Below, one piece after another: positions 1 through 15,338 of a stretch of DNA of 15,338 nt. The DNA is taken from UHGV virus genome UHGV-1839376, one strand, 5' to 3'. The notes under the pieces are model-generated. The model was not told where the DNA came from. It was given only the letters and a program-made list of their open reading frames with translations, and did no database searches. This DNA comes from a virus. Position 1 is the stretch's first letter. The number at the start of each line of letters is the position of its first letter. Both the position numbers and the translations under genes were made by a program.

Positions 1-64
1 ATTTCAATTCTATAGCTAAAACGTAATCAAATCATTCACATCCTTTCATATTTGACTCATGTAG

Positions 65-853
65 CCGAAACACGAAGTTAACCCACTGATGACTCTCCGC
101 CGCCTGCCGGATGAGGATCCGCAGAATCTCGCTGACCCGGTCTATCGCCGTCGCCGCATCATCCTTCAGAACATGAAGGATGAAGAGCTGGCGATTGCTC
201 AGGTCGAAGAGAAACAGGCTGTTTCGGCGGTGCTCAGCGGTAAATACACCATGACCGGGGAAGCGTTCGAGCCTGTTGAAGTCGATATGGGTCGCAGCGC
301 TGGTAACAACATTGTCCAGGCAGGTGCGGCTGCATGGTCAACCCGCGACAAAGAAACGTATGACCCGACCGATGACATTGAAGCGTACGCGCTTAATGCC
401 AGCGGTGTGATCAACATCATTGTGTTCGATCCGAAGGGCTGGGCGCTGTTCCGTTCCTTCAAGTCTGTTGAGAAGAAACTGGACACCCGTCGGGGTTCTA
501 ACTCAGAGCTGGAAACTGCCGTGAAAGACCTGGGTATGGCTGTTTCATACAAGGGTATGTATGGCGATGTGGCCATCGTGGTGTACTCCGGCCAGTACGT
601 CGAAAATGATGTCAAAAAGAACTATCTGCCGGATCTGACGATGGTTCTGGGTAATACACAGGCCCGTGGCCTCCGTACCTATGGCTGCATTCTTGATGCT
701 GATGCCCAGCGCGAAGGTATCAATGCCTCTACACGCTACCCGAAAAACTGGGTGCAGTCGGGGGATCCGGCGCGCGAATTCACCATGATTCAGTCAGCTC
801 CGCTGATGCTGCTGCCAGACCCTGACGCATTCGTCTCCGTCAAACTGGCATAA
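65..853 (+). pseudogene. E: Major capsid protein (lambda gpE-like), 5'-truncated fragment covering roughly the C-terminal 260 residues
   Basis: Translation PKHEVNPLMTLRRLPDEDPQNLADP...AREFTMIQSAPLMLLPDPDAFVSVKLA closely matches the C-terminal two thirds of lambda gpE as recalled. In-frame stops at 62-64 (TAG) and 53-55 (TGA); positions 1-61 are AT-rich and non-coding in all frames. Stop TAA 851-853. Confidence 0.85.
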
Positions 854-862
854 CTTCCCCCA

Positions 863-880
863 GTGGCCCTGTCGGGCCAC
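863..880 (+). other. Perfect 7-bp stem hairpin (GTGGCCC-TGTC-GGGCCAC) just after the capsid gene stop; possible mRNA stability or partial termination element
   Basis: Inverted repeat read directly from the sequence; no strong U-run follows, so not a canonical intrinsic terminator. Confidence 0.3.
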
Positions 881-898
881 CTTTCTGGAGTATTTCCC

Positions 899-1324
899 AT
901 GACAGAAAAAGAAAAGCTGGTCGCCCGCCTGAATGAACTTGGGACCCAGCTTAACCGCGAGGTCAGTTCCAGCGGCACCATTCAGGAACTAACGATGCGT
1001 ATTGCTGAGCTTGAAGAGGAGCTGGATGGAGACGCCATCTCGGTTGACGGTAAAAACGGCGTGCAGAATGCTTCCGACAGCACCGACAGCACCGACAGCA
1101 CCGACAGCACCGACAGCAATGTTGCTAACGTGGCAAAAGTAAAAACGGAATCGGCCACAACGGGTGACCTGGTATCAGTAGAAACGCTGGCCACCCTGCA
1201 TATTGACGCTCTGCATGCCACGCGTAACGAACCGGTATCCATCGTAGAGCCTGGTGTGATTATCCGCGTATCTGAACAGGATGCCGACGACTTGATCGCA
1301 AAGGGGCTGGCTTTCGAAGTCTGA
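899..1324 (+). CDS. FI: Head assembly / DNA packaging accessory protein (lambda gpFI-like)
   Basis: N-terminus MTEKEKLVARLNELGTQLNREV and C-terminus LHIDALHATRNEPV resemble lambda FI as recalled. GGAG 9 nt upstream of ATG 899. The ORF-track start at 863 is a GTG lying inside the hairpin and is not used. Confidence 0.85.
   Translation: MTEKEKLVARLNELGTQLNREVSSSGTIQELTMRIAELEEELDGDAISVDGKNGVQNASDSTDSTDSTDSTDSNVANVAKVKTESATTGDLVSVETLATLHIDALHATRNEPVSIVEPGVIIRVSEQDADDLIAKGLAFEV
1076..1120 (+). repeat. Tandem 9-bp repeat (GACAGCACC) x4 perfect plus one degenerate copy, in-frame within FI, encoding (DST)n linker
   Basis: Directly visible: gacagcacc repeated at 1076, 1085, 1094, 1103, then gacagcaat at 1112. 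Confidence 0.9.
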
Positions 1325-1334
1325 AGGGGGCCAC

Positions 1335-1688
1335 ATGGCTGATTTCGATAATCTCTTTGACGAGGCCATGTCGCGAGCTGATAGAGCTATCCGTGGTGTG
1401 ATGGGTACAGAGGCAAAGGTGATGTCAGGCGAATTGTCAGGTGCCACCCTGGTCGGTGTATTCGATGATCCAGAAAACATCGGGTATGCCGGTGCCGGGA
1501 TTCGCGTTGAAGGTACCAGCCCGACGCTGTTTGTTAAAACCTCCACTGTCAGCCAGCTGCAGCGTATGGACACACTGGCGATTAACGGGCGGCAATTCTG
1601 GGTTGATCGTGTTGGTCCTGATGATTGTGGATCATGTCACATCTGGCTGGGTAACGGCTCTCCGCCTGCTGCTGCGCGCCGCCGTTAA
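1335..1688 (+). CDS. FII: Head-tail joining protein (lambda gpFII-like)
   Basis: MADFDNLFDEAMSRADRAIRG...FWVDRVGPDDCGSCHIWLG matches lambda FII (117 aa) as recalled. RBS AAGGGGG upstream. Confidence 0.9.
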   Translation: MADFDNLFDEAMSRADRAIRGVMGTEAKVMSGELSGATLVGVFDDPENIGYAGAGIRVEGTSPTLFVKTSTVSQLQRMDTLAINGRQFWVDRVGPDDCGSCHIWLGNGSPPAAARRR

Positions 1689-1697
1689 GGAGCGCTT

Positions 1698-2252
1698 ATG
1701 TCAATAAAAGGCCTTGAACAGGCGATAGAAAACCTTAACAGCATCAGCAAAACGGCTGTCCCGCGTGCGTCGGCGCAGGCTGTTAACCGCGTGGCAAACC
1801 GGGCCGTCAGTCGCAGCGTGGCGGTCGTATCAAAAGATACGCGCGTACCGAGAAAACTGGTAAAGCAACGCGCCAGGGTGAAGCGTGCGACGGTCAATAA
1901 ACCTCGTGCGCTTATCCGTGTAAACCGGGGCAATTTACCGGCCATTAAACTCGGTACCGCAAGCGTGCGACTTTCCCGCAGAAAACGGGACAAGAAAGGG
2001 GCCAACAGCGTTCTGCGTATAGGACCGTTCCGTTTTCCGGGCGGTTTTATCCAGCAACTTAAAAATGGCCGCTGGCATGTCATGAGGCGTACGTCAAAAC
2101 CTCGTTACCCCATTGAAGTGGTCAGCATCCCGCTGGCAGCTCCATTAACTACGGCGTTTAAAGAAGAACTGCCAAAGCTCATGGAGTCAGATATGCCCAA
2201 AGAACTCCGGGCATCCCTTACCAACCAACTCAGGTTAATTCTGACACGATGA
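1698..2252 (+). CDS. Z: Tail completion protein (lambda gpZ-like)
   Basis: MSIKGLEQAIENLNSISKTAVP...GGFIQQLKNGRWHVMRRT matches lambda Z as recalled. RBS AGGAG at 1687-1691. Confidence 0.9.
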   Translation: MSIKGLEQAIENLNSISKTAVPRASAQAVNRVANRAVSRSVAVVSKDTRVPRKLVKQRARVKRATVNKPRALIRVNRGNLPAIKLGTASVRLSRRKRDKKGANSVLRIGPFRFPGGFIQQLKNGRWHVMRRTSKPRYPIEVVSIPLAAPLTTAFKEELPKLMESDMPKELRASLTNQLRLILTR

Positions 2253-2647
2253 AACACAGCGATATTCGCAAGGTGATTATTGACGCGCTGGAGAGCGCGA
2301 TTGGTACTGACGCCATTTATTTTGACGGCAGACCTGCAGTGCTTGAAGAGGGTGATTTTCCCGCTGTTGCCGTTTACCTGACCGATGCGGAATACACCGG
2401 GGAAGAACTGGACGCCGACACTTGGCAGGCCATTCTGCATATCGAAGTCTTTCTTGAGGCTCAGGTACCTGATTCTGAGCTGGATGACTGGATGGAGACG
2501 CGAGTGTATCCGGTTCTCGCAGAGGTTCCTGGGCTTGAATCCCTTATCACCACAATGATCCAGCAGGGCTATGACTACCAGCGCGATGATGATATGGCGC
2601 TGTGGAGTTCTGCCGACCTGAAATATTCCATTACTTACGACATGTGA
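2249..2647 (+). CDS. U: Tail terminator protein (lambda gpU-like)
   Basis: [16 protein letters not shown]...[31 protein letters not shown]...[14 protein letters not shown] matches lambda U as recalled. ATGA start/stop overlap with Z. Confidence 0.9.
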
Positions 2648-2654
2648 GGACCCT

Positions 2655-3392
2655 ATGGCCACACCAAACCCGCTGACACCAACAAAAGGTGCTGGTACCA
2701 CCCTCTGGGTTTACACCGGAACCGGAGATCCATACGCCAATCCGCTTTCAGACGTTGATTGGCTGCGGCTGGCAAAGATTAAAGACCTGCAGCCTGGCGA
2801 ACTGACAGCTGAATCGGAAGATGACACCTACATTGATGATGAGAATGCTGACTGGACATCAACGATGCAGGGGCAGAAATCAGCCGGCGAAACCAACCTG
2901 ACGCTCGCGTGGATGCCGGGAGATTCCGGCCAGCAGGACCTGGTGACCTGGTTCGATGAGGGCACCGTGAGGGGATATAAAATCAAATACCCAAATGGTG
3001 TCGTCGATGTGTTTAAGGGCTGGGTGAGCAGCCTCGGTAAAACCATCACTTCCAAAGAGGTCATGACCCGCACGGCCAAAATCACCAACAACGGCAAACC
3101 ATCGCTGGCAGAAGACAGCGGTACCGCGCCGATTGCAGTCACGGGGATCAGCCTGGATAAATCCACTGCGGCTGTGGCGATTGCGGCCACAACGCAACTG
3201 GTGGTGTCTGTCCTGCCAGCAAGTGCGTCAGATAAATCCTTCCGCGTAGCCAGCTCTGATCCTTCAAAAGCAACGGTCACAGTCAACGGCAATACCCTGA
3301 CCGTCACCGGGGTAGCTGCGGGCACCGTCGAAATCATCGTCATGAGCAATGACGGTAACTTTGTGGCGATCTGCAAAGTCACTGTTTCCTGA
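2655..3392 (+). CDS. V: Major tail tube protein (lambda gpV-like) with C-terminal Ig-like (Big_2-type) domain
   Basis: [45 protein letters not shown] matches lambda V as recalled; C-terminal segment has Ig-like character. Confidence 0.9.
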
Positions 3393-3396
3393 TAGC

Positions 3397-3412
3397 CGGG
3401 GCGTGAGCCCCG
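3397..3412 (+). other. GC-rich hairpin (CGGGGC-GTGA-GCCCCG, GNRA-type loop) after the major tail gene
   Basis: Perfect 6-bp inverted repeat read from the sequence; only 2 T follow, so at most a weak terminator or stability element. Confidence 0.3.
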
Positions 3413-3430
3413 TTCCCACCTGGAGTAAAT

Positions 3431-3853
3431 ATGTTTCTAAAGAGCGAACTGCTTGAAAGCAACGGCAGCAGCGTCACATTGTTCCAGCTTTCGGCGCTGC
3501 AGCGTATTGAATACCTCGAATACCTGAAGCAGCTGGAGGCAGTTGAAGCAGGCGATTTTCAGGCAGCCATCACCCTCACCGTAAAAAGTGGGGCGTTCCT
3601 CGTGGCGATGTCGCTATGGCGCGGCCACGAACTGAAAGGCTCCCAGGGAGAAAATGCGGCGGCGGAAGTGGCAAAGATTCAGGATGAGGTCATGCAGTCA
3701 TGGCCAACCGAACTTGTTGCCGAAGCGGAATATAAGGTGAAACTCCTGTCCGGGATGATTGCGCCGGTAACTGATGACCAGGCAGCGTCCGGCGAAGAAG
3801 GTAATGAACCCGCTGAACCCGCTACTGCGGAAAAGTCCTCGCCAGTGAGCTGA
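3431..3853 (+). CDS. G: Tail assembly chaperone (lambda gpG-like)
   Basis: MFLKSELLESNGSSVTLFQLSALQRIEYL...GAFLVAMSLW matches lambda G as recalled. RBS GGAG 5 nt upstream. Confidence 0.9.
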   Translation: MFLKSELLESNGSSVTLFQLSALQRIEYLEYLKQLEAVEAGDFQAAITLTVKSGAFLVAMSLWRGHELKGSQGENAAAEVAKIQDEVMQSWPTELVAEAEYKVKLLSGMIAPVTDDQAASGEEGNEPAEPATAEKSSPVS

Positions 3854-4182
3854 ATTTTGCCATGAAACTGGCGCGTGAGTTCGGTCGCCCGGACTGGCGT
3901 GCCATGCTTGCTGGCATGTCCTCAACGGAGTATGGCGACTGGAAAATCTTCTATCAGGACAATTACTTTCATGATGTGCAGCTGGACGCTCACTTCTCCG
4001 GCTTGCTCTACACCATCTCAACCATGTTTTTTGCCGATCCGGAGTTAACCCCGGACAGTTTCAGCATTCTTAATACTGCACAGGAACCCATCGACATTGA
4101 TGAACCGGATGACAATACGCTGATGGCGAAGGCTGCAGGTATTTCAGGAGGCGTGCGCTATGGCCCAGACGGCAGTCGGTGA
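3431..4182 (+). CDS. GT: Tail assembly chaperone G-T fusion made by programmed -1 ribosomal frameshift near 3829-3835 (GGAAAAG); T portion about 3835-4182
   Basis: The -1 frame is open from 3817 and encodes ...LAREFGRPDWRAMLAGMSSTEYGDW..., lambda gpT-like as recalled. The ATG at 3862 has no RBS. The G frame stops at 3851-3853. The only shifty motif in the overlap is A-AAG at 3832-3835. Confidence 0.75.
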
Positions 4183-6676
4183 TCTGGTCGTTAACCTTGA
4201 CGTTAACTCGTCGAAATTCAGCGAGCAGCTTAACTACGTCAAAAAAGAATTAAAACAGACCGGCAATGCGGCAAACGACGAAGCGTTACGTATCCAGCAG
4301 TCCTTCATCCGCCAGGAGAACGCCGCGCGTAAGGCCGGTATTTCAGTGGGTCAGTATAACGCCGCAATGCGTATGCTCCCGGCGCAGTTTACCGATGTGG
4401 CCACGCAGCTGGCAGGTGGGCAGAACCCCTGGCTGATTCTGCTTCAGCAGGGTGGTCAGGTTAAGGACTCCTTTGGCGGGATCATCCCGACATTCCGGGC
4501 GCTGATTGGGACGGTTTCCCCGTTGATGGTCGGCATTGGTGCATTGTCCGTTGCAACGGGCGCGTTGTTCTATGCCTGGTACCAGGGCTCTTCCACTCTG
4601 TCTGATTTCAACAAAACGCTGGTACTGTCGGGCAACACAGCCGGACTGACAGCTGACCGCATTCTGGCGCTGGCGCGGAACGGACAGGCAGCGGGGCTGA
4701 CCTTCAACCAGACCAGTGAAGCGCTGACCGAGCTTATCAACGCGGGGGTGCGTGCTGGCTCGCGCTTTGATGACATGAGCCAGGCGGTGTCGCGGTTTAC
4801 CGATGCCTCCGGCGTGCCGGTGGAGAAAGTCGCAGCAGCCTACGGCAAGCTCGCAACGGACCCGACATCGGGCCTGATCGCGATGGCCCAGCAGTTCCAT
4901 AACGTTACCGCTGAACAGATTGCCCATGTGGCGCAGCTGCAGCGTGCCGGTGATGAGGCTGGCGCACTGCAGGCGGCTAACGAGGCTGCTACAGCCGGAT
5001 TCAACGATCAGACCAAAGCCATCCGCGACAATATGGGGACGATAGAGTCTTCAGCGGACTCCCTGAAGCGCGCCTTCAAGTCGATGTGGGATGCAGCCCT
5101 CGATATTGGCCGACCTGACACCGCGCAGGAGATGGTGGCAAAAGCCGAAGCCGCGTTCAAAAAAGCTGATGAAATCTGGAACCTGCGTAAAGGTGACCGA
5201 TATGTCAATGATGAGGCTCGCGCCCGATTCTGGAATGACCGCGAAACGGCCAGGCTTGCGCTGGATATGGCGCAGCAGCAGGCGGGAATTGCCAGGGCGA
5301 ACGAAGAGAATGCATCGCGCGAAGCGGCTGCGGAATCGGATCGCCAGAAGTATGCTGCGCAGGCACAGGCAAACTATGCCAAAACGCAGACGGCACTGGA
5401 GAAATACACGGCCAGGCAGAGCGAGCTCAACAAGGCGCTGAAAGAGGGGCGGATCCTCCAGGCTGACTACAACATCAACCTGGCTGCCGCGAAAAAAGAG
5501 TACGAAGACACCCTTAAAAAGCCGAAGAAAACACCTGCAGTCAGGACTCCTGCCGGTACCCGTGCAACCGATGCGGCCAGCGCCCAGACGATGGAGCTGG
5601 AAGCACAGCTGCGCACCCTGCAGGAGCATAAGGGGATAAATGACACCATCAGCCAGCAGCGTCAGGAGCTGTGGCGTAAGCAGTCCCGTTTTACGGTTCT
5701 GGAAGAGGCCGCGAAGACCCGGACGCTTTCTGCCGAGGAAAAATCCCTGCTGGCCAGTAAAAGCGAGGTGCTTTCCCGTGCGGAGCTGAACGCGAAGCTC
5801 GGCGATCAGATAGTGGCGCAGGAGCGGCTTAATCGCCTGCAGGATACGTCCCAAAAATACGTCACGCAGATCGGCGAGAAAACCCGAGCCCTGGCGGAAA
5901 GTGCTGGTATGAGCAGTCGTGCAGCACAACGCCGCAACGAGGAGGCCCAGCTTCTTCAGGGGTGGAAAAATGGTGGAGGTTCCGAAAACGATGCCGGTTA
6001 TCAGAATGAGCTGCAGGGGCTGCATGCGTATTACGCCGAGCAGGATAAGCTTCGGGGTGACTGGCAATCCGGAGCCAAATCCGCATGGGCAGATTATGTT
6101 GATTCTGCTTCTGATGCTTATGGCCAGATGAAGTCGTTTGCCAGCAGTACGTTTGATGGCATTGGGCAAAATATGGCTGACATGCTGACGCGCGGAAAGG
6201 CTGACTGGGCTGACTTCACCCGCTCCACGCTCTCCATGCTGACACAGATCCTGCTGAAACAGGCGATGGTAGGCCTGGTGGATTCAGCATCAACCGCGCT
6301 GGGATTTGCAGGTGGCGGTTATACCGGTTCAGGCGGGAAATATGAGCCAGCAGGTGTCGTTCACCGTGGTGAGTTTGTTTTCACCAAAGAGGCTACCAGC
6401 AGGATCGGCGTCGGCAATCTTTACCGGATGATGAAAGGCTATGCAACGGGAGGGTATGTCGGGGGCGGTGGTACAGGCCCGGCTGCAGCACCTTTCGGTG
6501 TCAGTGTGTATGCCCCGGTGACGGTCGAGAATGCTTCCGGTAACGCACAGCAGCAAAACGACGGAGACAGGCTGGGTAAGGCGTATCAGCAGGTGATTAA
6601 CAAATCTGTCAATGATGGTATCGCCAGGGCAATCCAGCCCGGTGGGCTTATCTGGAATGCGACCAATCGCAGGTAA
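4160..6676 (+). CDS. H: Tail tape measure protein (lambda gpH-like)
   Basis: 838 aa; long blocks such as GISVGQYNAAMRMLPAQFTDVATQLAGGQNPWLILLQQGGQVKDSFGG and GGKYEPAGVVHRGEFVFTKEATSRIGVGNLYRMMKGYATGGYVG match lambda H as recalled. AGGAGG RBS; start overlaps the T stop. Confidence 0.92.
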   Translation: MAQTAVGDLVVNLDVNSSKFSEQLNYVKKELKQTGNAANDEALRIQQSFIRQENAARKAGISVGQYNAAMRMLPAQFTDVATQLAGGQNPWLILLQQGGQVKDSFGGIIPTFRALIGTVSPLMVGIGALSVATGALFYAWYQGSSTLSDFNKTLVLSGNTAGLTADRILALARNGQAAGLTFNQTSEALTELINAGVRAGSRFDDMSQAVSRFTDASGVPVEKVAAAYGKLATDPTSGLIAMAQQFHNVTAEQIAHVAQLQRAGDEAGALQAANEAATAGFNDQTKAIRDNMGTIESSADSLKRAFKSMWDAALDIGRPDTAQEMVAKAEAAFKKADEIWNLRKGDRYVNDEARARFWNDRETARLALDMAQQQAGIARANEENASREAAAESDRQKYAAQAQANYAKTQTALEKYTARQSELNKALKEGRILQADYNINLAAAKKEYEDTLKKPKKTPAVRTPAGTRATDAASAQTMELEAQLRTLQEHKGINDTISQQRQELWRKQSRFTVLEEAAKTRTLSAEEKSLLASKSEVLSRAELNAKLGDQIVAQERLNRLQDTSQKYVTQIGEKTRALAESAGMSSRAAQRRNEEAQLLQGWKNGGGSENDAGYQNELQGLHAYYAEQDKLRGDWQSGAKSAWADYVDSASDAYGQMKSFASSTFDGIGQNMADMLTRGKADWADFTRSTLSMLTQILLKQAMVGLVDSASTALGFAGGGYTGSGGKYEPAGVVHRGEFVFTKEATSRIGVGNLYRMMKGYATGGYVGGGGTGPAAAPFGVSVYAPVTVENASGNAQQQNDGDRLGKAYQQVINKSVNDGIARAIQPGGLIWNATNRR

Positions 6677-6681
6677 CAGTT

Positions 6682-7029
6682 ATGACGATAGAAACATTCC
6701 CCTGGGGCATTAAGGTTTCCAGCCAGCCCACCGAGGGAAGTAAAGACATAGTCAGGAAAGTCCAGTTCGGCGACGGGTACGCACAGGTGAGCGGCTCCGG
6801 CCTGAATGATGAGATTCGCACCTATGAATATTCCTTTTCAGGAGATCCGACTACAGCGAATGAAATCCATGCCTTCCTTCGTCGGCATAAAGTGAAGTCA
6901 TTTATTTTCACTCCGCCTTTCGGCGATACCGCGCTGTGGCGTGTAGAGGCTGACACGCTCAAAAAGGTGGTTAAAAACGTAAAAGTGATAACCGTAACCG
7001 CAACGTTTGAACAGGCATTTACACCATGA
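6682..7029 (+). CDS. M: Minor tail protein (lambda gpM-like)
   Basis: Size, position after H and the VRKVQFGDGY motif match lambda M (VRKVRFGDGY as recalled). Confidence 0.85.
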   Translation: MTIETFPWGIKVSSQPTEGSKDIVRKVQFGDGYAQVSGSGLNDEIRTYEYSFSGDPTTANEIHAFLRRHKVKSFIFTPPFGDTALWRVEADTLKKVVKNVKVITVTATFEQAFTP

Positions 7030-7781
7030 GTCTTAATGCTGATTATCAAAAACTTGAGCCGGGCAATGAAGTCCGGCTTTTTTCTGTCGATGGTACAGCG
7101 TTCGGTATGTCAGATGTGCTCCGCTTCCACGCACACAATATCGCGCACACCCCGGAAGAGATTGAAGCCGCAGGCGGCGACGAGAATAAACTTCCGGCGA
7201 AGTCCATCTGGTGGCAGGGGGAGGAGTATAAAGCCTGGCCGTGTCAGGTTGAGGGTATTGAAGCGACCACGGATGGTACCAGCCCACAGCCAAAACTGAG
7301 GGTGGCGAACCTGGACAGCTCGATCTCAGCGCTCTGTCTGGCGTATGACGATCTGCTGCAGGCGAAAGTGAGTATCCACGACACGCTGGCACAGTATCTG
7401 GACGCCAGAAATTTTCCGCAGGGCAATCCCACTGCAGACCCGTCACAGGAAAAGCTGAAGGTCTTTTATATCGATGCCAGAAGCACCGAGACGGATGAAG
7501 TTGTCGAATTTACGCTTTCCAGTCCGATGGATTTACAGGGCCAGATGATTCCGACGCGTCAGCTGCATTCGTTATGCAGCTGGTGCATCCGGAACAAGTA
7601 CCGGACCGGCGACGGCTGCGACTATGCCGGAACGCGCTATTTCGACAAAAACAATAATCCGGTTGACGATCCCTCGCTGGATGTCTGCAACGGCACGCTG
7701 ACGGCCTGCAAGCTCCGGCACGGAGACAGCAACGAACTGCCGTTCGGCGGTTTCCCGGGTACATCTCTTATCAGGAGCTGA
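7026..7781 (+). CDS. L: Minor tail protein (lambda gpL-like) with C-terminal cysteine cluster
   Basis: C-terminal CSWCIRNKYRTGDGCDYAG...CNGTLTACKLRHGDSNELPFGGFPG resembles lambda L as recalled. ATGA overlap with M. Confidence 0.88.
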   Translation: MSLNADYQKLEPGNEVRLFSVDGTAFGMSDVLRFHAHNIAHTPEEIEAAGGDENKLPAKSIWWQGEEYKAWPCQVEGIEATTDGTSPQPKLRVANLDSSISALCLAYDDLLQAKVSIHDTLAQYLDARNFPQGNPTADPSQEKLKVFYIDARSTETDEVVEFTLSSPMDLQGQMIPTRQLHSLCSWCIRNKYRTGDGCDYAGTRYFDKNNNPVDDPSLDVCNGTLTACKLRHGDSNELPFGGFPGTSLIRS

Positions 7782-7782
7782 T

Positions 7783-8514
7783 ATGCGTCAGAAAACCATT
7801 GATGCCATCATGGCACACGCTGCAGCGGAATATCCGCGCGAGTGCTGCGGCGTGGTGGCACAGAAAAGCCGGGTTGAGCGCTATTTTCCCTGTCGTAATC
7901 TCGCAGCAGAGCCGACTGAACATTTTCACCTGTCCCCCGAAGATTACGCAGCGGCAGAAGACTGGGGGACGGTGGTAGCCATTGTTCACAGCCATCCTGA
8001 CGCGACGACACAGGCCAGCGAGCTTGATAAGGCGCAGTGTGATGCAACACTGCTGCCCTGGCATATTGTGAGCTGGCCAGAGGGGGATTTACGTACCATT
8101 CAGCCACGCGGGGAGCTCCCATTGCTGGAGCGACCGTTTGTGCTTGGCCACTTCGATTGCTGGGGTCTGGTAATGAGCTATTTCCGGCAGACCCACGGTA
8201 TCGAGCTCTACGATTACCGGGTGGATTATCCCTGGTGGGAAAACGACTACCCGGACAATTTCTATCAGGATTGCTGGTATGAATGCGGATTCAGGGAGTT
8301 TGACGGCCCGACTCAGGAAGGGGACCTCGTCATCATGCAGGTGCAGGCTGATAAGTGGAATCATGCCGGGATTTTACTGGAGGGTAACATGCTGCTGCAC
8401 CATCTTTACGGGCATCTGAGCCAGCGAGTTCCTTATGGCGGATACTGGCAGGAGCGCACGATGAAGATCGTTCGCTATAAAGATGTAATGGCAGGTGAAA
8501 CATGCAGGAAGTAA
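7783..8514 (+). CDS. K: Tail assembly protein (lambda gpK-like) with JAB/MPN (JAMM) and NlpC/P60-like regions
   Basis: JAMM motif H-S-H-x7-S-x2-D visible in AIVHSHPDATTQASELD; a Cys-containing GHFDCWGLV segment follows. Position between L and I. Confidence 0.88.
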   Translation: MRQKTIDAIMAHAAAEYPRECCGVVAQKSRVERYFPCRNLAAEPTEHFHLSPEDYAAAEDWGTVVAIVHSHPDATTQASELDKAQCDATLLPWHIVSWPEGDLRTIQPRGELPLLERPFVLGHFDCWGLVMSYFRQTHGIELYDYRVDYPWWENDYPDNFYQDCWYECGFREFDGPTQEGDLVIMQVQADKWNHAGILLEGNMLLHHLYGHLSQRVPYGGYWQERTMKIVRYKDVMAGETCRK

Positions 8515-9089
8515 TGACCCGCATTGAGCTTGGCGGCGTGCTCGGGAAATCATTCGGTAAAATTCACCACCGCCTGATTTCCCGTGTAAGCGAGGCGGGA
8601 GTGGCGCTCGCAAAGACTATTCCGGGCTTTGAGCAGTTTATGATTTCCAGCCAGCGCCGTGGGCTCACATACTCCGTATTTAAGGGTAAAAAAAACATCG
8701 GTGTGGATGACCTCGGTTTCCCGGTTACCGGCGATGTTATCCGCATTGTCCCGGTAATCATCGGGAGTAAAAAAGCCGGTTTGATTCAAACTATCCTGGG
8801 CGCAGTATTAGTGATTGCATCGATCTGGATGCCAGGTCTGAGTATAGCTGCCAGCAATATGATGTTTGCTGCTGGTGCGTCCATAACGCTGGGGGGGGTA
8901 GTTCAGATGATATCCCCTCAGGCTACAGGGCTGGCCAGCAAACAGAGCTCAGATAACCGCGCCTCATACGCGTTCGGCGGAGTCACAAATACCGCCGCAC
9001 AGGGTTACCCGGTTCCGCTCCTGTACGGCCGCCGGAGAATCGGCGGGGCAATTATTTCTGCCGGAATTTATGTCGAAGATCAGCAGTAG
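8502..9089 (+). CDS. I: Tail assembly protein (lambda gpI-like)
   Basis: Position and size; VIRIVPVIIGSKKAGL, hydrophobic Gly/Ala-rich middle and C-terminal VPLLYG motif as in lambda I. Start overlaps the K 3' end. Confidence 0.85.
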   Translation: MQEVMTRIELGGVLGKSFGKIHHRLISRVSEAGVALAKTIPGFEQFMISSQRRGLTYSVFKGKKNIGVDDLGFPVTGDVIRIVPVIIGSKKAGLIQTILGAVLVIASIWMPGLSIAASNMMFAAGASITLGGVVQMISPQATGLASKQSSDNRASYAFGGVTNTAAQGYPVPLLYGRRRIGGAIISAGIYVEDQQ

Positions 9090-9106
9090 TTAACAAACCT
9101 TTTTAC

Positions 9107-9131
9107 AAGCCACCTTCGGGTGGCTTTTTTT
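9107..9131 (+). terminator. Rho-independent terminator-like hairpin between I and J (8-bp stem AAGCCACC/GGTGGCTT, UUCG loop, 7-T run)
   Basis: Perfect inverted repeat with TTCG loop followed by TTTTTTT, read directly from the sequence. Confidence 0.55.
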
Positions 9132-9142
9132 ATGGGCGCGAT

Positions 9143-12100
9143 ATGGCTAAAACAATTACCGGACGAAAAGGCGGGAGCTCCAGTTCCCGAACTCCCACCG
9201 AACAGCCTGATGATCTGCAATCTGTAGCGAAGGCAAAGATCCTCGTTGCGCTTGGGGAAGGGGAGTTTGCTGGACAGCTCACCGGGAAGGATATCTACCT
9301 GGACGGAACGGCGCTGGAGAACGCCGACGGCTCCCAAAACTTCAGCGGCGTTACGTGGGAATTTCGTCCGGGGACTCAGGCACAAAAATATATTCAGGGT
9401 ATCCCCGGCACCGAAAATGAAATCAGCGTGGGCACCGAAGTGTCAAGCACCACCGGCTGGACACATACCTTTACCAACACGCAACTGTCAGCCGTTCGCC
9501 TGCGCCTCAAGTGGCCATCGCTTTTTAAACAGGAGGATGATGGCGATCTGGTTGGCTATTCAATTAACTACGCTATTGATCTGCAGACCGATGGCGGCAC
9601 CTGGCAGACGGTACTTAATACCAGCGTAACCGGCAAGACAACTTCCGGCTACGAACGCAGCCATCGCATTGACCTACCGCAGGCAGGCAGCACATGGACG
9701 GTGCGCCTGCGTAAGCTAACGGCGGATGCCAACAGCGCGAAAATTGGTGACACGATGACGCTGCAGAGCTATACAGAGGTCATTGACGCCAAACTGCGTT
9801 ATCCAAATACCGCGCTGCTGTACATCGAATTCGACTCAAGCCAGTTTAACGGCTCTATCCCGCAAATATCCTGCGAACCGCGAGGGCGTGTAATCCGCGT
9901 TCCGGATACGTATGACCCGGAGACCCGCACCTATAGCGGCACATGGACGGGGGCGTTTAAGTGGGCGTGGACGGATAATCCAGCCTGGATTTTTTACGAT
10001 CTGGTGGTGAGCGACCGCTTTGGGCTGGGCAATCGCCTGACGGCGGCCAATATTGATAAATGGACGCTTTACCAGGTCGCGCAATATTGCGATCAGCCGG
10101 TTCCTGATGGTAAAGGCGGTAGCGGCACTGAGCCTCGCTATACCTGCAACGTGTATGTGCAGGAGAGGAATGACGCCTATACCGTGTTACGAGATTTTGC
10201 GGCGATATTCCGGGGCATGACTTACTGGGGTGGCGATCAAATCGTTGCGCTGGCGGATATGCCCCGCGATGTGGATTACAGCTACACGCGTGCAAACGTG
10301 GTTAATGGGCGCTTTACCTATTCGGGCAGCACCACGAAAACCCGCTATACCACAGCACTGGTTTCCTGGTCCGATCCGGGTAATGCCTACGCGGATGCGA
10401 TGGAGCCTGTATTTGAGCAGGATCTCGTTGCTCGCTTTGGCACAAATCAGCTCGAAATGACAGCCATTGGTTGTACCAGACAGTCAGAAGCGAACCGAAA
10501 GGGGCGCTGGGGTATTCTCACCAACAACAAGGATCGCGTTGTTTCGTTCGATGTCGGGCTGGACGGAAACATACCGCAGCCTGGCTATATCATCGCTGTG
10601 GCAGACGAGCTGCTTTCCGGAAAGGTTATGGGCGGACGCATCAGCGCCGTTAATGGTCGCGTTATCAAACTTGACCGTGTAGCTGATGCGGCAGCAGGTG
10701 ATCGCCTTATCCTCAACCTTCCCTCCGGAGCGTCACAGAGCAGGACAATTCAGGCGGTTAACGGGGAATCGGTCACAGTCACCACTGCATACAGTGAGAC
10801 GCCGCAGGCCGAAGCTGTCTGGGTGGTTGAGTCAAACGAACTGTACGCACAGCAGTACCGTGTTGTGAGCGTCACTGATAACGATGATGGCACTTTCACC
10901 ATTACCGGTGCATGGCACGATCCGGATAAATATGCCCGAATCGATACCGGAGCCATTATTGACCAGCGGCCGGTGAGCGTGATCCCGCCGGGCAATCAGT
11001 CACCGCCAGACAACATCGTAATCAGTTCGTTTTCGGTGGTGCAGCAGAATATCAGCGTCGAAACCATGCGCGTGAGCTGGGACCAGGCGCAGAATGCTAT
11101 CGCCTATGAAGCGCAATGGCGCCGCAACGACGGGAACTGGGTTAACGTGCCGCGCAGTTCCACCACGTCATTCGACGTTCCTGGGATTTATGCCGGGCGC
11201 TATCTGGTACGTGTACGCGCCATCAATGCCGCAGAAATTTCATCCGGGTGGGGATATTCGGAAGAGAAAACGCTGACGGGTAAAGTGGGCAATCCGCCGA
11301 AACCGGTCGGCTTCATCGCTTCCGATAATGTGGTATTCGGTATCGAGCTGAGCTGGGGATTCCCGGCGAACACCGACGACACGCTGAAGACGGAAATTCA
11401 GTACAGTCTGACTGGGACGGAAGACGATGCGATGCTGCTGGCAGACGTACCCTATCCGCAGCGCAAGTATCAGCAGATGGGCCTAAAGGCTGGGCAAATT
11501 TTCTGGTACCGCGCGCAGCTGGTGGACCGCAGCGGAAACGAATCAGGGTATACAGACTTTGTGCGCGGGCAGGCCAGCATCGATGTATCCGATATCACCG
11601 ATGCAATCCTGGAGGACATGAAAGGCTCCGATACGTTCAAAGACCTGATCGAGAACGCGGTAGACAGCAATGAAAAAATTGCTGGTATGGCTGACGACAT
11701 TAAACAGGCCAACGACGAACTGGCGCAACAGGCGCAGGATATCGCCAAAAACGCCCAGGATATCGGGAAGGTTCAGACCAGCGTTACAAACCTGTCGAGC
11801 ACGGTCGGAGATGTGTCTTCTTCTCTGAGCAAGCTTGAGCAGACAGTGGCGACGGCTGATACCGCGCTGAGCCAGCGCATCGATAACATCAGCGTGTCTG
11901 TGGACGGTATGACGGGTGGTGTAAAGAACTCGGCTATCGCTATAATCCAGAACGGGCTGGCACAGGTTACTTCCCGCCGCTCTCAAACCGTGACAAACGC
12001 GGGTAACAGCGCCAGCATTGACCGTATCGATACCACCATTGCAGATACCAGCCAGGCCGTTGCTCGCGCGCTGGTGACGCTTGATGCGTCTGCCGGTGGC

Positions 12101-12688
12101 AATGTTTCCAACTCCACCGACCTCACCGAAACGCTGGCTGATTTCACTCAGGCGTCGGCCACGAAAATCAACACGCTGACTGTTACCTCCGGAGAAAATA
12201 CTGCAGCCATTACGGTAAACGCAAAGGCCGTGGCTGATGTGAATAATAATCTCAGTGCGATGTACAACATTAAAGTGGGTGTCTCCAGCAACGGGCAGTA
12301 TTACGCTGCGGGGATGGGGATCGGCGTTGAGAATACGCCGTCCGGGATGCAGTCGCAGGTTATCTTCCTGGCTGACCGCTTCGCCGTCACCACGGCAGCA
12401 GGTAACAGCGTGGCTTTGCCGTTTGTGATCCAGAACGGGCAGACATTCATCCGGGCCAGTTTCATCCAGGACGGCACTATCAGCAACGCAAAGATTGGTA
12501 ATTTTATCCAGTCGAACAATTATGTTGCTGGTTCTGCTGGCTGGAAGCTTGATAAAGGGGGGACGTTTGAGAACTACGGTTCGACTGCTGGTGAGGGAGC
12601 CATGAAACTGACAAATCAGACGATCAGCGTCAAAGATGGCAGTAATGTTCTTAGGGTGCAGGTTGGCCGATTAACGGGAGTATTCTGA
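9143..12688 (+). CDS. J: Tail tip / central fibre host-specificity protein (lambda gpJ-like), with a C-terminal region unlike lambda J
   Basis: 1181 aa; blocks such as YTEVIDAKLRYPNTALLYIEFDSSQF and KWTLYQVAQYCDQPVPDG...TEPRYTCNVY match lambda J as recalled. The C-terminal part, from a coiled-coil-like region onward, differs from lambda J. Confidence 0.92.
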   Translation: MAKTITGRKGGSSSSRTPTEQPDDLQSVAKAKILVALGEGEFAGQLTGKDIYLDGTALENADGSQNFSGVTWEFRPGTQAQKYIQGIPGTENEISVGTEVSSTTGWTHTFTNTQLSAVRLRLKWPSLFKQEDDGDLVGYSINYAIDLQTDGGTWQTVLNTSVTGKTTSGYERSHRIDLPQAGSTWTVRLRKLTADANSAKIGDTMTLQSYTEVIDAKLRYPNTALLYIEFDSSQFNGSIPQISCEPRGRVIRVPDTYDPETRTYSGTWTGAFKWAWTDNPAWIFYDLVVSDRFGLGNRLTAANIDKWTLYQVAQYCDQPVPDGKGGSGTEPRYTCNVYVQERNDAYTVLRDFAAIFRGMTYWGGDQIVALADMPRDVDYSYTRANVVNGRFTYSGSTTKTRYTTALVSWSDPGNAYADAMEPVFEQDLVARFGTNQLEMTAIGCTRQSEANRKGRWGILTNNKDRVVSFDVGLDGNIPQPGYIIAVADELLSGKVMGGRISAVNGRVIKLDRVADAAAGDRLILNLPSGASQSRTIQAVNGESVTVTTAYSETPQAEAVWVVESNELYAQQYRVVSVTDNDDGTFTITGAWHDPDKYARIDTGAIIDQRPVSVIPPGNQSPPDNIVISSFSVVQQNISVETMRVSWDQAQNAIAYEAQWRRNDGNWVNVPRSSTTSFDVPGIYAGRYLVRVRAINAAEISSGWGYSEEKTLTGKVGNPPKPVGFIASDNVVFGIELSWGFPANTDDTLKTEIQYSLTGTEDDAMLLADVPYPQRKYQQMGLKAGQIFWYRAQLVDRSGNESGYTDFVRGQASIDVSDITDAILEDMKGSDTFKDLIENAVDSNEKIAGMADDIKQANDELAQQAQDIAKNAQDIGKVQTSVTNLSSTVGDVSSSLSKLEQTVATADTALSQRIDNISVSVDGMTGGVKNSAIAIIQNGLAQVTSRRSQTVTNAGNSASIDRIDTTIADTSQAVARALVTLDASAGGNVSNSTDLTETLADFTQASATKINTLTVTSGENTAAITVNAKAVADVNNNLSAMYNIKVGVSSNGQYYAAGMGIGVENTPSGMQSQVIFLADRFAVTTAAGNSVALPFVIQNGQTFIRASFIQDGTISNAKIGNFIQSNNYVAGSAGWKLDKGGTFENYGSTAGEGAMKLTNQTISVKDGSNVLRVQVGRLTGVF

Positions 12689-12689
12689 A

Positions 12690-12992
12690 ATGGCTTATGG
12701 AATACAGACCTGGGATGCTTCAGGAAAACCCAACAACTATGGCATCAAACCCGTTTCCGTCGTTGGGCGAATACAGCTGGCTGCCGGGCAAACCTCCGGC
12801 AGCTGGTCTTTTACGGTGCCCTCAGGAATGAAAGTTGGTTTTGTTCTTTCACTTGATGAAGGAGGTAACAGCGTAGGGCGGCGCATTGTCGCGTCAGGGA
12901 GCACAATAACCGTAAGCGCTGCATCTTCTGTAGGTCTGGGTAATTATCCGGCCTCAAAGTGTGAAGTGGTCGTTTTCATGGAGAAAGCATAA
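12690..12992 (+). CDS. Hypothetical protein (100 aa), first gene of the J-distal cassette; function unknown
   Basis: ATG 2 nt after the J stop, GGGAG RBS 9 nt upstream; stop overlaps the next start (TAATG). No recognisable catalytic motif. Confidence 0.7.
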   Translation: MAYGIQTWDASGKPNNYGIKPVSVVGRIQLAAGQTSGSWSFTVPSGMKVGFVLSLDEGGNSVGRRIVASGSTITVSAASSVGLGNYPASKCEVVVFMEKA

Positions 12993-13666
12993 TGGCCGAA
13001 TTTGGCGCGATGATATTAATGGACAACGGGAACCCATTTGTAACGCCCCAGTCAACGCCTTTTTGTCTTTACGGCAAGTACACTTTCAACTCCTCTGCTA
13101 ATGGCAGTTCGCAGCAGGTTGCTCAGAATATTGCATTAAATGCTGACTACCCTGTGATGGTATTTATCAGGACCACAAATACCGCCCAGCCCACGCCAGT
13201 AATATCTTACCGGAACGGAGGAAATGTATATGTCGCGGGGGTTAATCCCTATAACCAGAGCTTCACGTTAACCGCATATATATTTGCCATATTTCCCCAG
13301 ACGTTACCGAAATGGGGGATGGCCATCTGGGATGCGGCAGGAAAGCTGGTGCTCACTAATGAGTCCCGGGTGTTGTCCGACCTACAGACAATTGGAACGC
13401 CTGGCGCAAACGGAGGGATAAATATCGATCAGACACTTAGCGGGCCATGGGCTGTTGCACCTGCACAGCTTGGCCAAAGCATCGTTGTGAATAACTCAAC
13501 CCAGCCTCCGACAATCTACACCATTAATGCTTATTCGGCGTGCAGGTTTGACGGGGCCAATACGAGGATAAACGCAGGGGGGTCCTCCACTGGCACAGGC
13601 TCTCCGGGGGGGCTAACGAAGGCTGGCATTTCCTTAACCGCGATAAATACAGCGGCCTATGACTGA
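12992..13666 (+). CDS. Hypothetical protein (224 aa), second gene of the J-distal cassette; appears to hold two copies of the domain found in the preceding protein
   Basis: Translationally coupled to the upstream ORF; GGAG RBS. Internal segment KWGMAIWDAAGK resembles the N-terminus MAYGIQTWDASGK of the preceding protein, and the underlying DNA is also similar (16 of 19 nt). Confidence 0.7.
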   Translation: MAEFGAMILMDNGNPFVTPQSTPFCLYGKYTFNSSANGSSQQVAQNIALNADYPVMVFIRTTNTAQPTPVISYRNGGNVYVAGVNPYNQSFTLTAYIFAIFPQTLPKWGMAIWDAAGKLVLTNESRVLSDLQTIGTPGANGGINIDQTLSGPWAVAPAQLGQSIVVNNSTQPPTIYTINAYSACRFDGANTRINAGGSSTGTGSPGGLTKAGISLTAINTAAYD

Positions 13667-13718
13667 TTGATCGTTTTGGGCGATCAATAACTGATAATTG
13701 ATCTATCAAATCAATTAT
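13666..13718 (+). promoter_or_regulatory. Intergenic inverted-repeat cluster: 8-bp stem hairpin (13666-13688) and perfect 9-bp inverted repeat ATAATTGAT-N7-ATCAATTAT (13694-13718); candidate operator/regulatory region upstream of the lipoprotein gene
   Basis: Repeats read directly from the sequence; TTGAT/ATCAA half-sites recur at least five times within 55 bp. No confident -35/-10 pair identified. Confidence 0.4.
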
Positions 13719-13777
13719 ACCCACCTCTTTCATGTTGGTATTGTCTAAGTTCATGAATACCTCTGGATATCATCAAA

Positions 13778-14011
13778 ATGATTAAGCTTCTTATCGGTAT
13801 GGCTTGCGCTGCCATGCTTTCAGGTTGCGCTGGTGTACTTGAGAAACAGGAACCGATTTGCAGCGGCACGGCATATATGGGTGGCCATGAGAATACCGTT
13901 ATGATTTACGCCGTTCGAAAGCAAAACAACCAGACGCAATACCGGGCCGGATATCCCTTTAACTGGCGCTGGGTAAGTGCGAACACATTCACAAGCACGA
14001 CATGTAAATAA
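13778..14011 (+). CDS. cor: Small outer-membrane lipoprotein, Cor/Llp-like (putative receptor-blocking superinfection exclusion protein)
   Basis: 77 aa; signal peptide with lipobox LSGC (MIKLLIGMACAAMLSGC); two further Cys (ICSGTAYMGGH and C-terminal TTCK) in a pattern reminiscent of T5 Llp as recalled. Lies between J and the tail fibre gene. Weak RBS. Confidence 0.6.
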   Translation: MIKLLIGMACAAMLSGCAGVLEKQEPICSGTAYMGGHENTVMIYAVRKQNNQTQYRAGYPFNWRWVSANTFTSTTCK

Positions 14012-14031
14012 CTCATGACTTTCAATGCAAA

Positions 14032-14053
14032 CCTCGCCTCGGCGGGGTTTTTT
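14032..14053 (+). terminator. Rho-independent terminator after the lipoprotein gene (stem CCTCGC/GCGGGG with one G-U pair, CTCG loop, 6-T run)
   Basis: Read directly from the sequence, 21 nt after the TAA stop at 14009-14011. Confidence 0.55.
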
Positions 14054-14069
14054 ATTGCCTGGAGAAAAT

Positions 14070-15338
14070 ATGCTTTATAACACAGGAACTATCTCTATTA
14101 ACGGAAATACCGCAACCGGATCCGGTACAAACTGGACTGCACCGGCCAGCCAGGTTCGCGCTGGCCAGACGATTATTGTCATGTCTAACCCGGTTCAGAT
14201 GTTCCAGATTTCATCCGTGAATAGCGCCACGTCAATGACGGTAACGCCTGCTGCATCACCGGCGCTGAGCGGCCAGAAGTACGGCATTCTGGTATCAGAC
14301 AATATCTCGGTTGATGGACTGGCACAGGCTATGTCGCAGCTCATCAAAGAGTACGACGAGAACATTGGCGCGTGGGAGGCGTTCGCCACCACATCAGCAA
14401 ACCAGAGCATCACCGTCACCATAAACGGCACCCCTGTTACGATCCCCGGCATCGGTAAACTGGCGCAGAAAGGGAGCAACGGTGCGCTTGCTGTTGCAGA
14501 CGGCGGGACCGGGGCAACGACTGCAGCAGCCGCTCGATCAAGCCTCGGTTTGGGAAGTAGTGCAATCCTCAATGTAGGTAATGCTGCAGGCAATGTCATC
14601 ACACGAGGAAGCGGCATATCAGCAAGCTACTCTGATGTAAACCTTGTGCTCTTTATGAAGAGCATTGGATCTGGATGGTATCGAAATTTGCTGGCCGGGA
14701 TAGGCATGTACCAATATTCAGCAGGATTTTATTCGTATACTGGTGATACGCATGCCTATATCCAGGTTGACTATGCTACCGGGAATGTCAGAGCTCTAGG
14801 GACGGGAGATAATCTGTTAGCGGACGGTATAGTAAAAATCAACACGCTATATGGAACAGTAAATACAACAAAATCCAGCGATGGCACCATTAAAGCAGCA
14901 TCACCAGTGGCCCGTATTGTGACGAGTCGTGACGTATGCCAGCGAGCTGATATAGCGGAGGATGGTTTCTCCTGGTGCGGCTGTGGAACGGCTAACCCTG
15001 AAGCAGAGGGAGTAACCCTTTCTCGCCTCGATGTTGGGATTTACATGCTAACCGGCTCGGCTGGCTTGGCGTCAGATGGATGGCAACTGCTGCCCCCAAT
15101 GGACCCTGGCGGCATGGGAGAGTTGGGAGTGGTTGAGGCAGAGCAAACCGATAGCGGCGAGCTGACAATCCGTCTTTTCAAGCGAAAATATATCCTGAGC
15201 GATGAAGGTGAGGTCATCAAAACCAAAGGTGAACCGATTGACGTCCCGGCGAACAGCTGGATCGATGTTCGTCTGGATATGCCAGTGGATAGCATCTGGA
15301 ACCCCAAAGTTTCCGGTTCTTCTCTCGAACTCCAGTGA
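14070..15338 (+). CDS. Side tail fibre protein (422 aa) with conserved N-terminal region and variable C-terminal domain
   Basis: GGAG RBS 5 nt before ATG 14070. The motif GALAVADGGTGATTAAAARSSLGLGS is typical of phage tail fibre proteins. The ORF-track start at 14025 would run through the terminator hairpin. Stop TGA at 15336-15338 coincides with the window end. Confidence 0.8.
   Translation: MLYNTGTISINGNTATGSGTNWTAPASQVRAGQTIIVMSNPVQMFQISSVNSATSMTVTPAASPALSGQKYGILVSDNISVDGLAQAMSQLIKEYDENIGAWEAFATTSANQSITVTINGTPVTIPGIGKLAQKGSNGALAVADGGTGATTAAAARSSLGLGSSAILNVGNAAGNVITRGSGISASYSDVNLVLFMKSIGSGWYRNLLAGIGMYQYSAGFYSYTGDTHAYIQVDYATGNVRALGTGDNLLADGIVKINTLYGTVNTTKSSDGTIKAASPVARIVTSRDVCQRADIAEDGFSWCGCGTANPEAEGVTLSRLDVGIYMLTGSAGLASDGWQLLPPMDPGGMGELGVVEAEQTDSGELTIRLFKRKYILSDEGEVIKTKGEPIDVPANSWIDVRLDMPVDSIWNPKVSGSSLELQ

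Follow-up and report, generated by a model that had tools for sequence, protein, structure and literature searches.

A J-like tail fibre without a recognisable lambda-type receptor-binding domain and a probable phi80-type receptor-binding cassette in virus genome UHGV-1839376

Introduction

Which part of a lambdoid tail tip recognises the host receptor is the question raised by the 3' end of the J-like gene in virus genome UHGV-1839376, of which a stretch of 15,338 nucleotides (nt), here called the window, was analysed. In lambda, gpJ comprises hub domains, two FNIII domains (FNIII-1 and FNIII-2), a short shaft of alpha-helices, a prism of beta-sheets and, at the C-terminus, an Ig-like receptor-binding domain (RBD), which pushes loops into LamB (PMC11101478). 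An earlier note on the window had proposed that its J protein matches lambda J in the N-terminal and central parts, diverges from a coiled-coil-like segment onward and ends in a shorter C-terminal domain that itself binds another receptor, of the FhuA type used by phi80, T1 and N15. We consider it probable, from comparison of the sequences, that the J tip forms an exchangeable cassette with the genes gp22, gp23 and cor downstream, that this cassette is here essentially that of phi80, and that J carries no lambda-type RBD and ends in an adaptor, with FhuA bound by the small proteins.

Results

The Distal Part of J Differs from Lambda J

The window covers the late module, with the head and tail genes, of a lambdoid/N15-like prophage. 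By blastn, nt 60-9070 were 97% identical to phage HK225 and nt 60-11558 about 90% identical to N15. The exact J protein was found to be public already: at least 34 assembly blocks contain it, as part of a chromosomal prophage. Four features of J are referred to below:

9143..12688, + strand: J-like central tail fibre/tail-tip protein of 1181 amino acids (aa), from the open reading frame (ORF), Pfam and homology
11573..12208, + strand: alpha-helical shaft/coiled coil, aa 811-1022, from heptad periodicity and the pyocin fibre alignment; candidate fold-switching segment
12209..12610, + strand: beta-prism "central straight fibre" domain, PF09327, aa 1023-1156, from Pfam and the lambda gpJ chains in the PDB
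12563..12685, + strand: terminal ~41 aa of J (TFENYG...RLTGVF), from identity to phi80, HK022, T1 and N15; proposed adaptor for the receptor-binding cassette

In BLASTP, J was 32% identical to lambda J across aa 11-859, with a separate 30% match of aa 1018-1109 to lambda residues 840-931, and a six-way MAFFT alignment agreed. J also contains PF24801 (FNIII-A_GpJ, aa 90-216) and PF13550 (Phage-tail_3, aa 341-503), both above cut-off. The proposed match of the N-terminal and central parts to lambda J is thus borne out as homology, but it is a distant one, and the J proteins of N15, HK225 and HK022 are closer.

Lambda J residues ~935-1132 had no counterpart in the window J by BLASTP, phmmer or MAFFT. 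Within nt 11580-12688, the region flagged by the earlier note, the lambda gpJ chains 8iyk, 8xcj and 8jvm aligned only at aa 1017-1112, with lambda residues 839-934, and the prism PF09327 (163.8 bits against a cut-off of 22) is the sole part of this region with a lambda counterpart. The NCBIfam model lambda_TipJ (NF049904) scored 523 bits, under its cut-off of 1950, and its profile positions 959-1163 were unmatched by J. Beyond the shared prism match, J has 72 residues and lambda about 200. The C-terminal part is therefore shorter, as had been claimed, whereas the protein as a whole is longer (1181 versus 1132 aa) because of an inserted shaft. This domain-wise comparison indicates that the window J has every element of lambda gpJ except the RBD, and it agrees with the earlier view that no LamB-binding domain is present at the J C-terminus.

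The inserted shaft is about 200 aa long and starts at about aa 811; lambda J is without it and that of N15 is much shorter, so that divergence from lambda does begin at a coiled-coil segment. The peptide quoted in the earlier note, DDIKQANDELAQQAQDIAKNAQDIGKVQTSV, corresponds to J aa 851-881 and lies within the flagged interval. Heptad statistics support the coiled coil: hydrophobic periodicity at 3.5 residues, computed against composition-preserving shuffles, gave z = 14.2 for aa 840-925 and z = 6.8 for aa 815-1022. No proline and no aromatic residue occurs in aa 840-990, and weak matches to the coiled-coil families SMC, EnvC and ApoLp-III fell on the same shaft residues. Judged by its sequence, nt 11580-12688 is the distal shaft and tip of a central tail fibre of the phi80/HK022 type.

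J and the Downstream Genes Form a Mosaic

The relatives of J were found to change along its length. Residues 1-810 resemble N15, HK225, mEp237 and HK022, with 83-100% identity to HK022 per 30-aa window, and identity to N15 gp21 was 82% from aa 5 to ~815. Residues 811-930 are HK022-like and absent from N15. Residues 931-1050 are phi80-like (93%), with only 37-77% identity to HK022, while residues 1051-1181 are 100% identical to both the phi80 and the HK022 J. The tip is 72% identical to that of T1 and 75% to that of N15. The start of the flagged region, nt 11580, was found to mark a real mosaic junction, as N15-like DNA ends at nt 11558 and phi80-like DNA begins at nt 11606.

One block within this region is identical to phi80 at the DNA level:

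12461..13215, + strand: zero-mismatch block to phi80 of 755 bp, taking in the J tip, gp22 and the greater part of gp23, from the pairwise blastn mismatch list and sliding-window identity

As far as nt 13582 the pairwise blastn alignment with phi80 contained only three mismatches. Allelic divergence from HK022 starts within gp23, at about nt 13330. The window is a clean case of cassette exchange, with 755 bp identical to phi80 set within an N15/HK022-like tail module and with junctions in the coiled coil of J and in gp23.

J is a patchwork upstream of the flagged region too. Nucleotides 9400-10600 were ~100% identical to HK225 and mEp237, and nt 10500-11300 were ~95% identical to HK022 and mEpX1 but just 70-80% to HK225. 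A public assembly, GCA_014165155.1 (3001-7488), carries a J and gp22-like pair identical to that of the window, followed by a 212-aa gp23 allele of the HK022 type; no cor gene was called there.

The Cassette Downstream of J

J is followed by three small genes and a terminator:

12690..12992, + strand: gp22-like, 100 aa, PHROG 557 (PHI80_22/N15 gp22/T1 gp32 family); likely tail-tip accessory subunit
12992..13666, + strand: gp23-like, 224 aa, PHROG 425 (PHI80_23/N15 gp23/T1 gp31 family); most likely receptor-binding protein (RBP)
13778..14011, + strand: cor, 77-aa superinfection-exclusion lipoprotein, HK022-type allele, PHROG 1119, from NF047972
14029..14050, + strand: intrinsic terminator ending the J-gp22-gp23-cor unit, a 9-bp GC-rich stem followed by a T-run

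A terminator is annotated at the same place in phi80. The order J-gp22-gp23-cor is common to eight reference phages (phi80, N15, T1, HK022, HK225, mEp237, mEpX1 and the Dhillonvirus Teewinot), and a megablast search with nt 11000-14100 against 5426 complete E. coli genomes found the cassette in 91, in most cases with 80-90% identity. The gp22-like protein is 100% identical to gp22 of both phi80 and HK022. The gp23-like protein differs from phi80 gp23 by six substitutions (Q89K, Q171R, S198T, L208V, K210N and A211T), which leaves 97.3% identity, and it is 81% identical to its HK022 counterpart, 58% to that of Teewinot and 55% to that of T1, the T1/N15 range being 55-65%. Among homologues gp22 is conserved at 69-93% identity and gp23 is much more variable (46-92%).

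Cor matched the equivalog model NF047972 with 135 bits against a cut-off of 31, which supports its use in the earlier note as a pointer to FhuA. Its N-terminus, MIKLLIGMACAAMLSGC, contains the lipobox LSGC, and it is 89.6% identical to HK022 Cor and 79.2% to phi80 Cor. No sigma-70 promoter was found in a scan of nt 12600-14200 for a cor "moron" promoter.

Public annotations label the two proteins between J and Cor "outer membrane protein" and "membrane associated protein", and PHROG files them under "moron". Neither a signal peptide nor a hydrophobic segment was found in either of them, and the structure predictions gave soluble all-beta folds. The labels are thus unsupported and probably wrong. 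Translational coupling links J to gp22 and gp22 to gp23, through TGAaATG and TAATG junctions, and places gp23 in the late structural operon. Pfam and NCBIfam held no family for either protein, and sequence searches of the PDB with the two gave no match.

A side-fibre gene with PF25670 follows the terminator and runs off the window end. Its mechanical ORF start at nt 14025 falls at the terminator, and related assemblies start the side fibre at nt 14070 (MLYNTG...). Elsewhere in the window, nt 3431-3853 (gpG-like) and 3862-4182 (gpT-like) are the counterparts of N15 genes 14 and 15, a pair that uses a -1 frameshift; the canonical GGGAAAG slippery heptamer did not turn up in a brief search at these ORFs, where the sequence is CGGAAAAGT.

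Predicted Structures of the Small Proteins

The best matches of the gp23-like predicted fold were a solved RBP and fibre RBDs, followed by the Pam1 tailspike RBD and R2-pyocin fibre domains. Foldseek against the PDB returned nothing below E 0.03 for this model and did not list 9rpt, the RBP of Oekolampad on LptDE. Compared directly with the Oekolampad RBP or its family DUF6453 (PF20051), gp23-like gave an hhalign probability of 2% between family alignments, a BLASTP E of 0.3 and no Pfam hit. The fold link of gp23-like to the solved RBP (9RPT chain C), which these three comparisons did not reproduce, is suggestive, not proven. The gp22-like model (predicted local distance difference test, pLDDT, 83.6) is a small beta-sandwich with generic matches only.

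A short motif, [YFW]G[AIM]x[ITM][WLI](x)D..G.P, recurs at four places. It is present at the N-terminus of gp22-like as MAYGIQTWDASGKP (window 12690-12731), at the N-terminus of gp23-like as MAEFGAMILMDNGNP (window 12992-13036), within gp23-like as WGMAIWDAAGKL (window 13313-13351) and at the N-terminus of the unrelated LptD-binding RBP of Oekolampad as MGAGILIDYNDGRP (Oekolampad record 4742-4783, - strand). When the gp22 and gp23 families were compared by hhalign, only the 14-column stretch of the motif was aligned (E 8.5e-5). The recurrent G/D/G-P motif may be a shared docking strand of the tail tip.

The Shaft Probably Resembles That of a Pyocin Fibre

Full-length J matched the F2-pyocin fibre 25vf_A with E = 0, and the flagged fragment did so with an E of 1.5e-26; J aa 940-1149 correspond to 25vf_A residues 988-1192. 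The fragment is also homologous to T1 gp33 (9l9p_S). A loose regular expression for an SxSxxMxxLxS-like pattern matched 12 times in aa 815-1025, against 5.1 ± 2.1 in shuffled sequences, and seven times in the other 814 residues.

In the F7 pyocin a coiled coil of 163 residues at this position turns into a beta-prism when the particle binds a cell, driving out the tape measure, and AlphaFold analyses predict the same switch for many siphophage fibres, including those of the lambdoid phages mEp390 and HK639 (PMC12874032). By analogy with these F-type pyocins, a switch of the window coiled coil to a beta-prism on binding is plausible, although we rate it at somewhat less than an even chance.

Discussion

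FhuA Is the Most Likely Receptor

T1 and phi80 are established to use FhuA, and experiments showed the same for the Dhillonviruses JLBYU37, JLBYU60 and Teewinot (PMC10373560), in which the gp22 and gp23 homologues are 70% and 58% identical to those of the window. In T1 and phi80, lipoproteins of the Cor family bring about exclusion at FhuA (PMC9586334). The window J ends in a conserved tip, ...GWKLDKGGTFENYG...RVQ(V/I)G(R/K)(L/I)TG(V/S)(F/W), a pattern that Teewinot shares. Cor/FhuA dependence in HK022-like and mEp lambdoid phages was reportedly described by Uc-Mass in 2004 and by Hernandez-Sanchez in 2008. Since the module is 97-100% identical to that of phi80, whose FhuA dependence is established, FhuA appears by far the most likely receptor of the window module. 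The phi80/T1/N15-type specificity suggested by the earlier note is thereby strengthened.

The Small Proteins Probably Bind FhuA

Under the reading preferred here, the distal part of J would consist of a trimeric heptad coiled coil (~aa 811-1022), the prism and the ~41-residue adaptor, and receptor recognition would be supplied by the cassette that travels with the tip. Most likely, the gp22-like and gp23-like proteins would attach to the J tip and reach FhuA, a TonB-dependent transporter. The direct binder is most likely gp23-like, in view of its coupling to the structural genes and of its greater variability than gp22, and the Cor lipoprotein would then block FhuA in lysogens. Several earlier proposals are of this kind. 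Dedicated RBPs encoded just downstream of gpJ alongside an exclusion lipoprotein were proposed (PMC8594841), the GpJ tip may give structural compatibility with a locus-encoded RBP (bioRxiv 10.64898/2026.04.02.716166), and the same split-RBP architecture was proposed in PMC12309495. In F-pyocins, the genes directly after that of the central fibre encode PyoF11 and PyoF12, which occur in the particles, are essential and are predicted to form the fibre cap (PMC12874032).

Two phages of one genus with different receptors are instructive. Up to ~aa 1080, the J proteins of Teewinot (FhuA) and Oekolampad (LptD) agree at 92-100% of positions; in the last ~55 residues the identity falls to 45% and then to 32%. 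This drop coincides with a switch from a cassette of the gp22/gp23/cor type to a single 321-aa RBP with a different exclusion lipoprotein, and the Teewinot tip follows the pattern of the window, phi80, T1 and N15. A tblastn search with the last 100 aa of J found 1634 phage records, among which Oekolampad, TheodorHerzl and IME253, with other cassette types, matched only the first ~62 of these residues. Because of this swap, of the partial matches and of the look of the small ORFs as structural subunits, the J C-terminus does not appear to be an RBD itself. The claim that a different J C-terminal domain binds a different receptor thus probably names the wrong mechanism.

Alternative Explanations

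It is unlikely, in our judgement, that the J tip itself is the FhuA-binding element and that gp22-like and gp23-like are assembly chaperones or non-virion (membrane/moron) proteins. The tip is kept at 72-100% identity among the FhuA phages T1, N15, phi80 and HK022, FhuA-predictive k-mers were located in the GpJ tip (bioRxiv 10.64898/2026.04.02.716166), PHROG and RefSeq carry the membrane labels described above, and at the sequence level gp23 has no significant link to a proven RBP. However, only ~41 residues of the tip are cassette-specific and these are invariant where gp23 varies. Against this reading there is also the translational coupling of both small proteins to J, their lack of a signal peptide or hydrophobic segment, the predicted fold of gp23-like and the occurrence of the pyocin homologues PyoF11 and PyoF12 as essential parts of particles. 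Much less probable still is that the six gp23 substitutions or the different shaft direct the module to a receptor distinct from FhuA, such as some other TonB-dependent transporter. Homologues do occur in phages of Klebsiella, Enterobacter and Citrobacter whose receptor is unknown, but a gp23 at 97.3% identity to that of phi80 has to be seen beside the far more divergent gp23 proteins of HK022, Teewinot and T1, which go with FhuA-dependent phages, and a Cor equivalog adjoins. That the J C-terminus is a diverged LamB-binding domain is extremely improbable. We found nothing in its support: the prism is the only lambda similarity in the flagged region, the 72 residues past it compare with ~200 in lambda and do not align to lambda 935-1132, and the lambda_TipJ score falls below cut-off. 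This candidate was ruled out at the sequence level.

Some observations weigh against an adaptor tip with small FhuA-binding proteins and a refolding shaft. The exchange between Teewinot and Oekolampad involves the tip and the cassette together and so cannot tell which part touches the receptor. The gp22-like model did not match the lambda RBD on structure comparison, contrary to PMC12309495. The use of FhuA is argued here by analogy to phi80 and HK022, and gp23 differs from its phi80 counterpart at the six residues listed above. The fold-switch idea draws on a loose regular-expression count (p about 0.005) and on pyocin fibre homology, not on structure.

Significance

The description of the J end, the cassette, and the split-RBP and fold-switch ideas are already known. 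Nothing in them is new: the protein is public in exactly this form, phages with the cassette are well known and both ideas have been published; there is no new biology beyond the work on phi80, HK022 and T1, the BASEL work and the F-pyocin structures. The value lies in annotation: for lambdoid prophages, the J tip, gp22, gp23 and cor taken together, rather than "J" alone, indicate the receptor class. A bolder proposal, to which we give rather less than even odds, is that the J coiled coil is a metastable spring which refolds into a beta-prism when a tripartite tip of J adaptor, gp22-like and gp23-like binds FhuA, both small ORFs being true binders. If true, this would identify the FhuA-binding subunits of phi80-type phages, for which no experimental demonstration is known from a FhuA-dependent lambdoid phage, and would extend a spring mechanism so far shown only for F-type pyocins.

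Comparison with Known Systems

Among the closest systems is the phi80 module (PHI80_21 as J, PHI80_22, PHI80_23 and cor), which has the same gene order and a terminator after cor. From ~aa 931 to 1181 the J proteins are 93-100% identical, and the 755-bp block of identical DNA lies within the module. In contrast, the hub and FNIII domains of phi80 J are only ~50-60% identical to those of the window J, which is N15/HK225/HK022-like there, the coiled-coil residues 871-930 of the window are absent from phi80, and the window cor is an HK022-type allele (79% identity to phi80). For HK022 (gp24, the J protein, with gp25, gp26 and cor) the identity of J reaches 83-100% along most of the protein, the start of the coiled coil and the tip among them, whereas the gp23 counterpart has 212 rather than 224 aa and is 81% identical.

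T1 (gp33-gp32-gp31-cor) and N15 (gp21-gp24) have full-length J homologues (T1 9l9p_S, E 7.6e-293), but their shafts are unrelated to or shorter than that of the window, N15 J being 1061 aa long, and the T1 cor gene lies on the opposite strand.

The F-type pyocin central fibre (PDB 25vf; PMC12874032, PMC13455828) and the window J are homologous over the last ~210 aa (E 1.5e-26). In each, a long coiled-coil shaft leads to the prism, and two small proteins, a proposed fibre cap, are encoded directly downstream. The pyocin is a Pseudomonas bacteriocin with a receptor of the lipopolysaccharide type, not FhuA, and its alpha-to-beta fold switch has been shown, whereas for the window J it is only inferred.

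The RBP of Oekolampad (Bas18), solved on LptDE (PDB 9RPT; DUF6453), is encoded at the same locus downstream of a J homologue, together with an exclusion lipoprotein, and shares the N-terminal G-x-x-I-L-x-D-x-x-G-x-P motif with gp23-like. The two have no significant sequence or profile similarity, the J tips differ, and Oekolampad has a single protein of 321 aa that binds LptD where the window has a pair of 100 and 224 aa.

Lambda gpJ (PDB 8IYK, 8XCJ/8XCK) has ~32% identity to the window J and shares with it the order hub, FNIII, helical shaft and prism. The shaft is short in lambda and greatly expanded in the window. Downstream of lambda J lies lom, and the RBD is covalently attached to gpJ, whereas the window J is without an RBD and is followed by two separate ORFs, gp22 and gp23, and by cor.

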